This document shows positions 1-83 of a stretch of DNA of 4,267 nt, piece by piece. The stretch's first letter is position 1, and every line of letters begins with the position of its first letter. Source of the DNA: Escherichia coli (GTDB lineage Bacteria > Pseudomonadota > Gammaproteobacteria > Enterobacterales > Enterobacteriaceae). The position numbers were made by a program, and so were the translations under genes. Where the stretch lies: NCBI RefSeq assembly GCF_003334385.1, contig NZ_QOWN01000088.1, one strand, 5' to 3'. The notes under the pieces are model-generated. The model saw only the letters and a program-made list of their open reading frames with translations. It ran no database searches and was not told the DNA's origin.

Positions 1-48
1 TGGCGGGCAGGACGCCCGCCATAAACTGCCAGGCATCAAATTAAGCAG

Positions 49-83
49 AAGGCCATCCTGACGGATGGCCTTTTTGCGTTTCT
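49..83 (+). terminator. rrnB T2 rho-independent terminator (distal end of the rrnB rRNA operon)
   Basis: Seen in sequence: perfect 10-bp stem AAGGCCATCC (49-58), loop TGAC (59-62), stem GGATGGCCTT (63-72), then T-rich tail TTTTTGCGTTTCT. I recognise the whole stretch 1-83 as the rrnB T2 segment that is also carried in many expression vectors. An upstream GC hairpin GGCGGGC-AGGAC-GCCCGCC (2-20) belongs to the same rrnB 3' region. Confidence 0.85.

Follow-up and report, generated by a model that had tools for sequence, protein, structure and literature searches.

For the terminator T2 at the end of the Escherichia coli ribosomal RNA operon rrnB, PMC8144298 cites a description by Brosius and colleagues (1981) and an analysis by Orosz (1991). 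As quoted in that same paper, the latter study arrived at termination efficiencies of 87% for T1 and 100% for T2. Czyz et al., working in vitro with purified RNA polymerase, report ~50% termination at T2, and find that this terminator stops both the E. coli and the mycobacterial enzyme (PMC3993855). A structural peculiarity of the rrn terminators, namely a nested stem that can absorb the U-tract, was already noted by Cambray et al. (PMC3643576).

The DNA between the two terminators has its own literature. Stenum et al. (2021) established that the repeat located between T1 and T2 of rrnA, rrnB, and rrnD constitutes the small RNA genes rrA, rrB, and rrF, respectively (PMC8144298). These workers describe RNAs (RrA, RrB, and RrF) that arise by read-through of T1 and are processed to ~173 and 115 nt; they are short-lived, their binding to Hfq and CsrA was seen in vitro only, and the associated phenotypes are modest. 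In the tRNA-linked repeat (TLR), as described there, an 18-bp sequence occurs twice, 150 bp apart (PMC8144298, Figure 1 legend). Five GGA motifs are present, two of them in hairpin loops, and mutation of GGA 1, 2, and 5 abolished CsrA binding. Beyond the operon, murB, birA, and coaA belong, according to Brandis et al. (2019), to the genes that insertion brought between the ancestral rrnB and tufB operons (PMC6735719).

The DNA analysed here, a 4,267-base stretch of the E. coli chromosome that we refer to as the window, covers this interval, running from the 3' end of rrnB into the first part of tufB. Its genes are murB (169–1197, plus strand), encoding UDP-N-acetylmuramate dehydrogenase; birA (1194–2159, plus strand), which overlaps murB by 4 nt; coaA, on the minus strand downstream of birA and convergent with it; and the four tRNA genes thrU, tyrU, glyT, and thrT, followed by the beginning of tufB. 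The murB and birA assignments are based on the open reading frames together with annotation, for murB the RefSeq annotation of the identical MG1655 stretch. Compared over its full length with K-12 MG1655, the window is identical at 4265 of 4267 positions, the two exceptions being A97 (G in K-12) and T1757, a synonymous change in the third position of the Leu188 codon of birA. In MG1655 the window is immediately preceded by the 16S, tRNA-Glu, 23S, and 5S genes of rrnB, and the mature 5S end is 300 nt from the murB start codon, in keeping with the original prediction that murB sits directly downstream of rrnB.

Of 5426 complete E. coli genomes, 5418 carry bases 1–400 as one uninterrupted stretch with an annotated murB, although no complete genome matches this stretch at 100%. 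Of the 5419 complete genomes that gave a match, that of strain BS-01 alone has A97, which is also present in E. whittamii. BS-01 shares T1757 as well, yet differs from the window at 29 positions and lacks bases 1–23. On the evidence developed below, bases 1–93 are very probably the native 3' end of rrnB, consisting of the tail of rrB and the terminator T2 (45–83), which closes the rrn unit and shields murB-birA, and are not a contaminant. Every element in this segment (T2, the vector cassette, and rrB/RrB) has been described before, and the region is in that sense already known and ordinary.

The rrB tail and the T2 hairpin

The window opens within rrB. Its left edge cuts the element, so that only the 3' tail lies inside and the rest is found upstream of base 1. 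Bases 1–21 (plus strand) form the last stem-loop of rrB (tRNA-linked repeat), an 8-bp stem of UGGCGGGC and GCCCGCCA closed by the loop AGGAC, with a predicted folding energy of −17.5 kcal/mol (z −2.58) and a sequence identical in rrnA, rrnB, and rrnD of K-12. In our reading of the sequence, the GGA at 10–12 in this loop would be the fifth GGA motif of rrB and hence a candidate CsrA site. Immediately beyond, at 24–41 on the plus strand, lies the 18-nt direct repeat AACTGCCAGGCATCAAAT, which alignment with the MG1655 5S gene plus T1 shows to reproduce exactly the 13 nt that end 5S rRNA and the next 5 nt. This is the distinguishing mark of a TLR, in which 18–19 bp at the 3' end repeat the 3' end of the upstream RNA gene. 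The identical MG1655 locus places the element downstream of 5S and between T1 and T2, the location described for rrB, and arithmetic from the figures in PMC8144298 would put the 3' end of the 173-nt RrB at about base 43.

With its terminal hairpin, its GGA loop, and its 18-nt repeat of the 5S end, the segment from base 1 to about 43 belongs to the RrA/RrB/RrF family. It differs in that the tail alone is present in the window; the Hfq and CsrA binding is that reported for the family in PMC8144298. The original prediction had taken bases 1–83 as a whole to be the native rrnB T2 region, which is correct as regards T2 and overlooked that bases 1 to about 43 are the 3' part of rrB. A search of Rfam at E-values up to 10 returned no family for bases 1–168, rrB and T2 included, and matched only the four tRNAs.

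The T2 hairpin occupies bases 45–77 on the plus strand. Its core, located by a custom scan, is an 8-bp stem with 6 G-C pairs in which GGCCATCC (51–58) pairs with GGATGGCC (63–70) across the 4-nt loop TGAC (59–62), with the tail TTTTTGCGT directly 3' of the stem. The U-tract TTTTTGCGTTTCT, at 71–83 on the same strand, can be read directly from the sequence. In the minimum-energy structure the core is prolonged by an outer extension of A-U pairs closed by G-C, which joins 45–50 to 71–77. Folding of the region 40–83 gives a minimum free energy of −22.7 kcal/mol and a z-score of −5.67, and none of 200 shuffled sequences was as stable. T2 therefore possesses the features by which an intrinsic terminator is recognized, namely a stable G+C-rich hairpin, a U-rich tract on its 3' side, and pairing that is maintained by selection, as documented in the following section.

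T2, then, follows the plan of canonical Rho-independent terminators: it stands where a transcription unit ends and pairs a G+C-rich hairpin with a U-tract immediately 3' of it. It departs from them in that the U-tract is interrupted (UUUUUGCGUUU) and in that the outer A-U stem can absorb it. A consensus promoter and terminator scan of bases 1–400 made no call at all, T2 included, and at T2 we attribute this to a false negative, greedy extension of the stem consuming the U-tract and leaving too few T residues.

The sequence of events at this locus would be as follows. Polymerases that pass T1, about 13% according to one published measurement, as quoted in PMC8144298, would transcribe rrB. The G+C-rich T2 hairpin would then form beside the U-tract and bring about Rho-independent release of the transcript, and processing of the released RNA would give RrB. 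T2 would in this way close the rrn transcription unit and shield murB-birA, transcription of which would most likely start from a weak promoter of its own ~60 nt further on.

Conservation and copy number of T2

Selection on the T2 hairpin was assessed with homologues from other enterobacteria. With a degenerate pattern built on the murB N-terminus, 57 loci were recovered. Of these, 54 are enterobacterial, and in at least 36 of the 54 the 3' end of 5S is found 112–260 nt upstream of murB. The remaining loci are mostly contigs that break less than 200 nt from murB, as would be expected beside a repeat. An alignment of 36 distinct sequences comprising the 5S end plus the terminator was then examined for covariation. 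Pairing within the T2 hairpin is intact in 96.4% of cells, and seven of its nine pairs have changed on both sides among the 36 homologues. The covariation score was not equalled by any of 500 shuffles, and partner columns that are slid out of register pair at most 47% of the time. The TTTT following the stem is invariant in all 36. Because compensatory changes have preserved the pairing and the TTTT has not varied, we conclude that hairpin and U-tract are under selection, as would be expected of a terminator. Some of the aligned hairpins are T1-like, however, and part of the variation may stem from exchange between rrn operons and not from point substitution.

Within E. coli, T2 is shared among operons in a manner that restricts what each part of the window can report. 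Bases 1–93 occur at a median of 3 places per genome, as opposed to one place for bases 70–169. In K-12, the copy at rrnA (T2 after rrA) agrees with rrnB at every base between the 5S end and window base 77, while that of rrnD (after rrF) shows a few base differences, including a GAAA loop in place of TGAC. From base 78 onward the flanks of both diverge, and the genes downstream are mobB and yhdZ rather than murB. The rrnB-specific flank is thus GTTTCTACAAACTCTT (78–93, plus strand), base 93 being the last one shared with the vector cassette. Because bases 1–77 are identical at rrnA and nearly so at rrnD, only 78–93 mark the cassette as derived from rrnB. For the same reason, only 78–168 can report read-through from rrnB to murB.

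The arrangement upstream of T2 is polymorphic. Bases 1–110 are contiguous, with 1–23 joined to T2, in 2523 of 5426 complete E. coli genomes (~46%). The others among the matches listed, ATCC 8739 and O157:H7 strains being examples, match only from base 24, where a 5S gene is annotated. In BS-01 (locus L063, 4240–4400), 5S runs straight into T2, and the 168 bp by which this strain differs from the K-12-type arrangement correspond to the T1 and rrB sequence between the two 18-nt repeats, together with one of those repeats. T1 and rrB together behave as a unit that is gained or lost among E. coli. Since 5S leads directly into T2 where this unit is absent, a large fraction of strains have no rrnB terminator other than T2. 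The single-terminator arrangement is likewise found in many other genera.

Among the loci from other genera, Kluyvera, Raoultella, Klebsiella indica, and one Enterobacter (L016, L019, L022, and L027) carry two copies of the 5S-end motif, 108–169 nt apart, upstream of murB. These correspond to the K-12-like arrangement with a double terminator and TLR, a single copy being the rule in most other genera sampled. It was also observed that many of the draft assemblies containing these murB loci (L004–L060) have one end 60–450 nt before murB and the other near tufB, yielding contigs of ~4.2–5 kb. Such contig ends flanking murB-birA-coaA are consistent with assembly breaks at the 5S/TLR repeat on one side and at tuf or tRNA repeats on the other.

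The murB upstream region and possible read-through of T2

The chromosomal murB upstream region (94–168, plus strand), found at one place per genome, has a conservation pattern of its own. In 55 enterobacterial loci from ~20 genera one sees a near-invariant block, ATACGGTAAACTA (128–140), followed by an invariant G146 and by TTTTGCATCAGGA (148–160). Within it are a −10-like hexamer, TAAACT (134–139), that is invariant in the 55 loci and has 4/6 matches, and the Shine-Dalgarno sequence AGGA (157–160). The block is anchored to murB, whereas the sequence separating it from the terminator is free in both content and length (about 81 to more than 160 nt). TAAACT is thus probably the murB −10 element, a prediction that would place the transcription start near G146 and give a 22-nt leader. 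No −35 hexamer is convincing, the best candidate having 3/6 matches by eye, and the consensus scan of 1–400 gave no promoter site. A search of the literature for a mapped murB start site, including the supplements of Conway 2014, SMRT-Cappable-seq, and Cappable-seq, returned nothing usable. Overall, it is most likely that murB has its own promoter, as judged from the conservation pattern, and that T2 insulates the gene.

Three other readings of this upstream sequence were considered and rejected. A structured RNA leader in 84–168 finds no counterpart in folding, which yields nothing significant upstream of murB (z −0.02). A sigma-54 promoter, suggested by eye from TTGCAT at 149–154, lacks the GG at −24 and would fall in a variable region. 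A BirA operator half-site, suggested likewise by eye from the resemblance of GTAAAC to the bioO half-site TGTAAACC, has no convincing inverted partner.

The alternative that fares best starts from the suggestion in the original prediction that terminator read-through could contribute to murB-birA transcription. It supposes that rrn transcription complexes reading through T2 supply a meaningful share of murB-birA mRNA, and so couple expression of cell-wall and biotin-ligase functions to rRNA synthesis. The geometry is suitable, for only 300 nt separate the 5S end from murB, with no terminator in between other than T1 and T2, and the adjacency of 5S end, terminator, and murB recurs in at least 36 of the 54 enterobacterial loci. 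The rrn promoters are, moreover, strong enough that slight leakage could already be of consequence. The ~50% efficiency of T2 in vitro (PMC3993855) points the same way, and because of it insulation by T2 may be incomplete. Set against this are the 100% efficiency that PMC8144298 quotes from Orosz (1991) and the ~87% of transcripts that T1, according to the same quotation, has already removed.

The conservation data argue against read-through as well, the near-invariant promoter-like block belonging to murB itself and the T2 hairpin being under strong structural selection. Relevant, too, is the Term-seq data set of Adams et al. (2021), whose supplement, in the entries for this region, places a 3' end at T1 (4171799/800) under two of the three conditions; the next one listed is internal to murB, at 4172639, so that T2 has none. 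That silence fits a situation in which few transcripts reach T2, and does not demonstrate termination there. The internal site, an RNA 3' end within murB at window position 751 (genome 4172639), is listed for two conditions in these entries. Finally, deletion of the whole of rrnB, promoters and terminators included, leaves a viable strain despite murB being an essential gene (PMC4330394); this is weak evidence, since a CamR gene stayed between murI and murB in that strain.

On balance the suggestion receives little support, and we regard a meaningful contribution of read-through to murB-birA mRNA as unlikely. Marginally less likely still is a more specific version, in which rrn polymerases modified for antitermination would leak through T2 at a low level that depends on growth rate and so top up murB-birA transcription, and gain or loss of T1+rrB would alter the leak between strains. 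If this were true, the leak at T2 would tie the supply of peptidoglycan precursors and of biotin ligase to ribosome synthesis.

A possible role in RrB, and the vector copies

Rather than terminating the operon, the T2 hairpin might serve mainly as a 3' stability or processing element of RrB. It does lie directly 3' of rrB, and a longer RrB species seen on northern blots is taken to include T2 (PMC8144298). The distribution of the hairpin tells otherwise, as the same structure follows 5S directly, with no rrB at all, in over half of the E. coli genomes and across many genera. Furthermore, the mature 173-nt RrB would, by the figures in PMC8144298, end upstream of the T2 hairpin, and the invariant U-tract is a feature of terminators. 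A principal function in RrB is for these reasons improbable, and distinctly more so than a contribution by read-through; we continue to read T2 as the terminator that closes the rrn unit.

The remaining question is that of vector DNA. The two strings quoted in the original prediction are found at 1–20 (TGGCGGGCAGGACGCCCGCC) and at 47–93 (AGAAGGCC...CTACAAACTCTT). The prediction equated bases 1–83 with the rrnB T2 cassette of common cloning vectors, and the identity is borne out, with the correction that the shared segment ends at base 93 and not at 83. A search of 72,556 plasmid records shows pAK51, pMQ, and a 42-kb Stenotrophomonas plasmid to match at 100% over exactly 1–93 and then to stop, with an E-value (9e-41) far beyond chance, so that the segment is indeed carried by plasmids of the cloning-vector type. 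By alignment, the plasmids with the cassette also share the sequence upstream of it, i.e., the 5S end, T1, and the T1–T2 spacer including rrB. The only “plasmid” records that span 1–168 are megabase-sized and presumably chromosomes.

The vector rrnB T1–T2 cassette and the window are thus the same over 1–93 and part company beyond. The cassette ends at base 93 and joins vector DNA, in pAK51 a bla promoter region of the pBR322 type, whereas the window runs on into the chromosomal murB leader and contains no vector backbone past that point. It had been predicted that vector copies would leave the genome immediately after CTACAAACTCTT, that the window would not, and that the segment here is accordingly genomic context; the alignment came out in just this way, the window tracking the chromosome from base 94 where the plasmids diverge. 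Although the 100% identity to vector-like plasmids is what one would expect of vector contamination, or of an assembly chimera joining bases 1–93 to genomic murB, we exclude such an origin with near certainty because 5418 of 5426 genomes have the same 93/94 junction in the chromosome, the plasmids part from it at 94 and the window does not, and the whole length matches MG1655.

The window instead holds the original of the segment that was copied into cloning vectors, the copy ending at base 93. Two practical points follow. An automated screen that called bases 1–93 vector would be wrong for this window. The two cases can be told apart at the junction, since vector copies stop at ...CTACAAACTCTT (base 93), while the chromosome goes on with CCTGTCG (CCTATCG in this window). 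Furthermore, plasmids with the cassette also carry rrB, and the authors of PMC8144298 warn of possible interaction with Hfq and CsrA.

A further hairpin is seen at the other end of birA. Between the convergent birA and coaA genes (window 2158–2187) lies an inverted repeat, GGGGAG/CTCCCC at 2164–2181. The Term-seq 3' end of coaA, at 4174046 on the minus strand, corresponds to window position 2158, just within the birA stop codon. This intergenic hairpin looks like a shared or bidirectional terminator.
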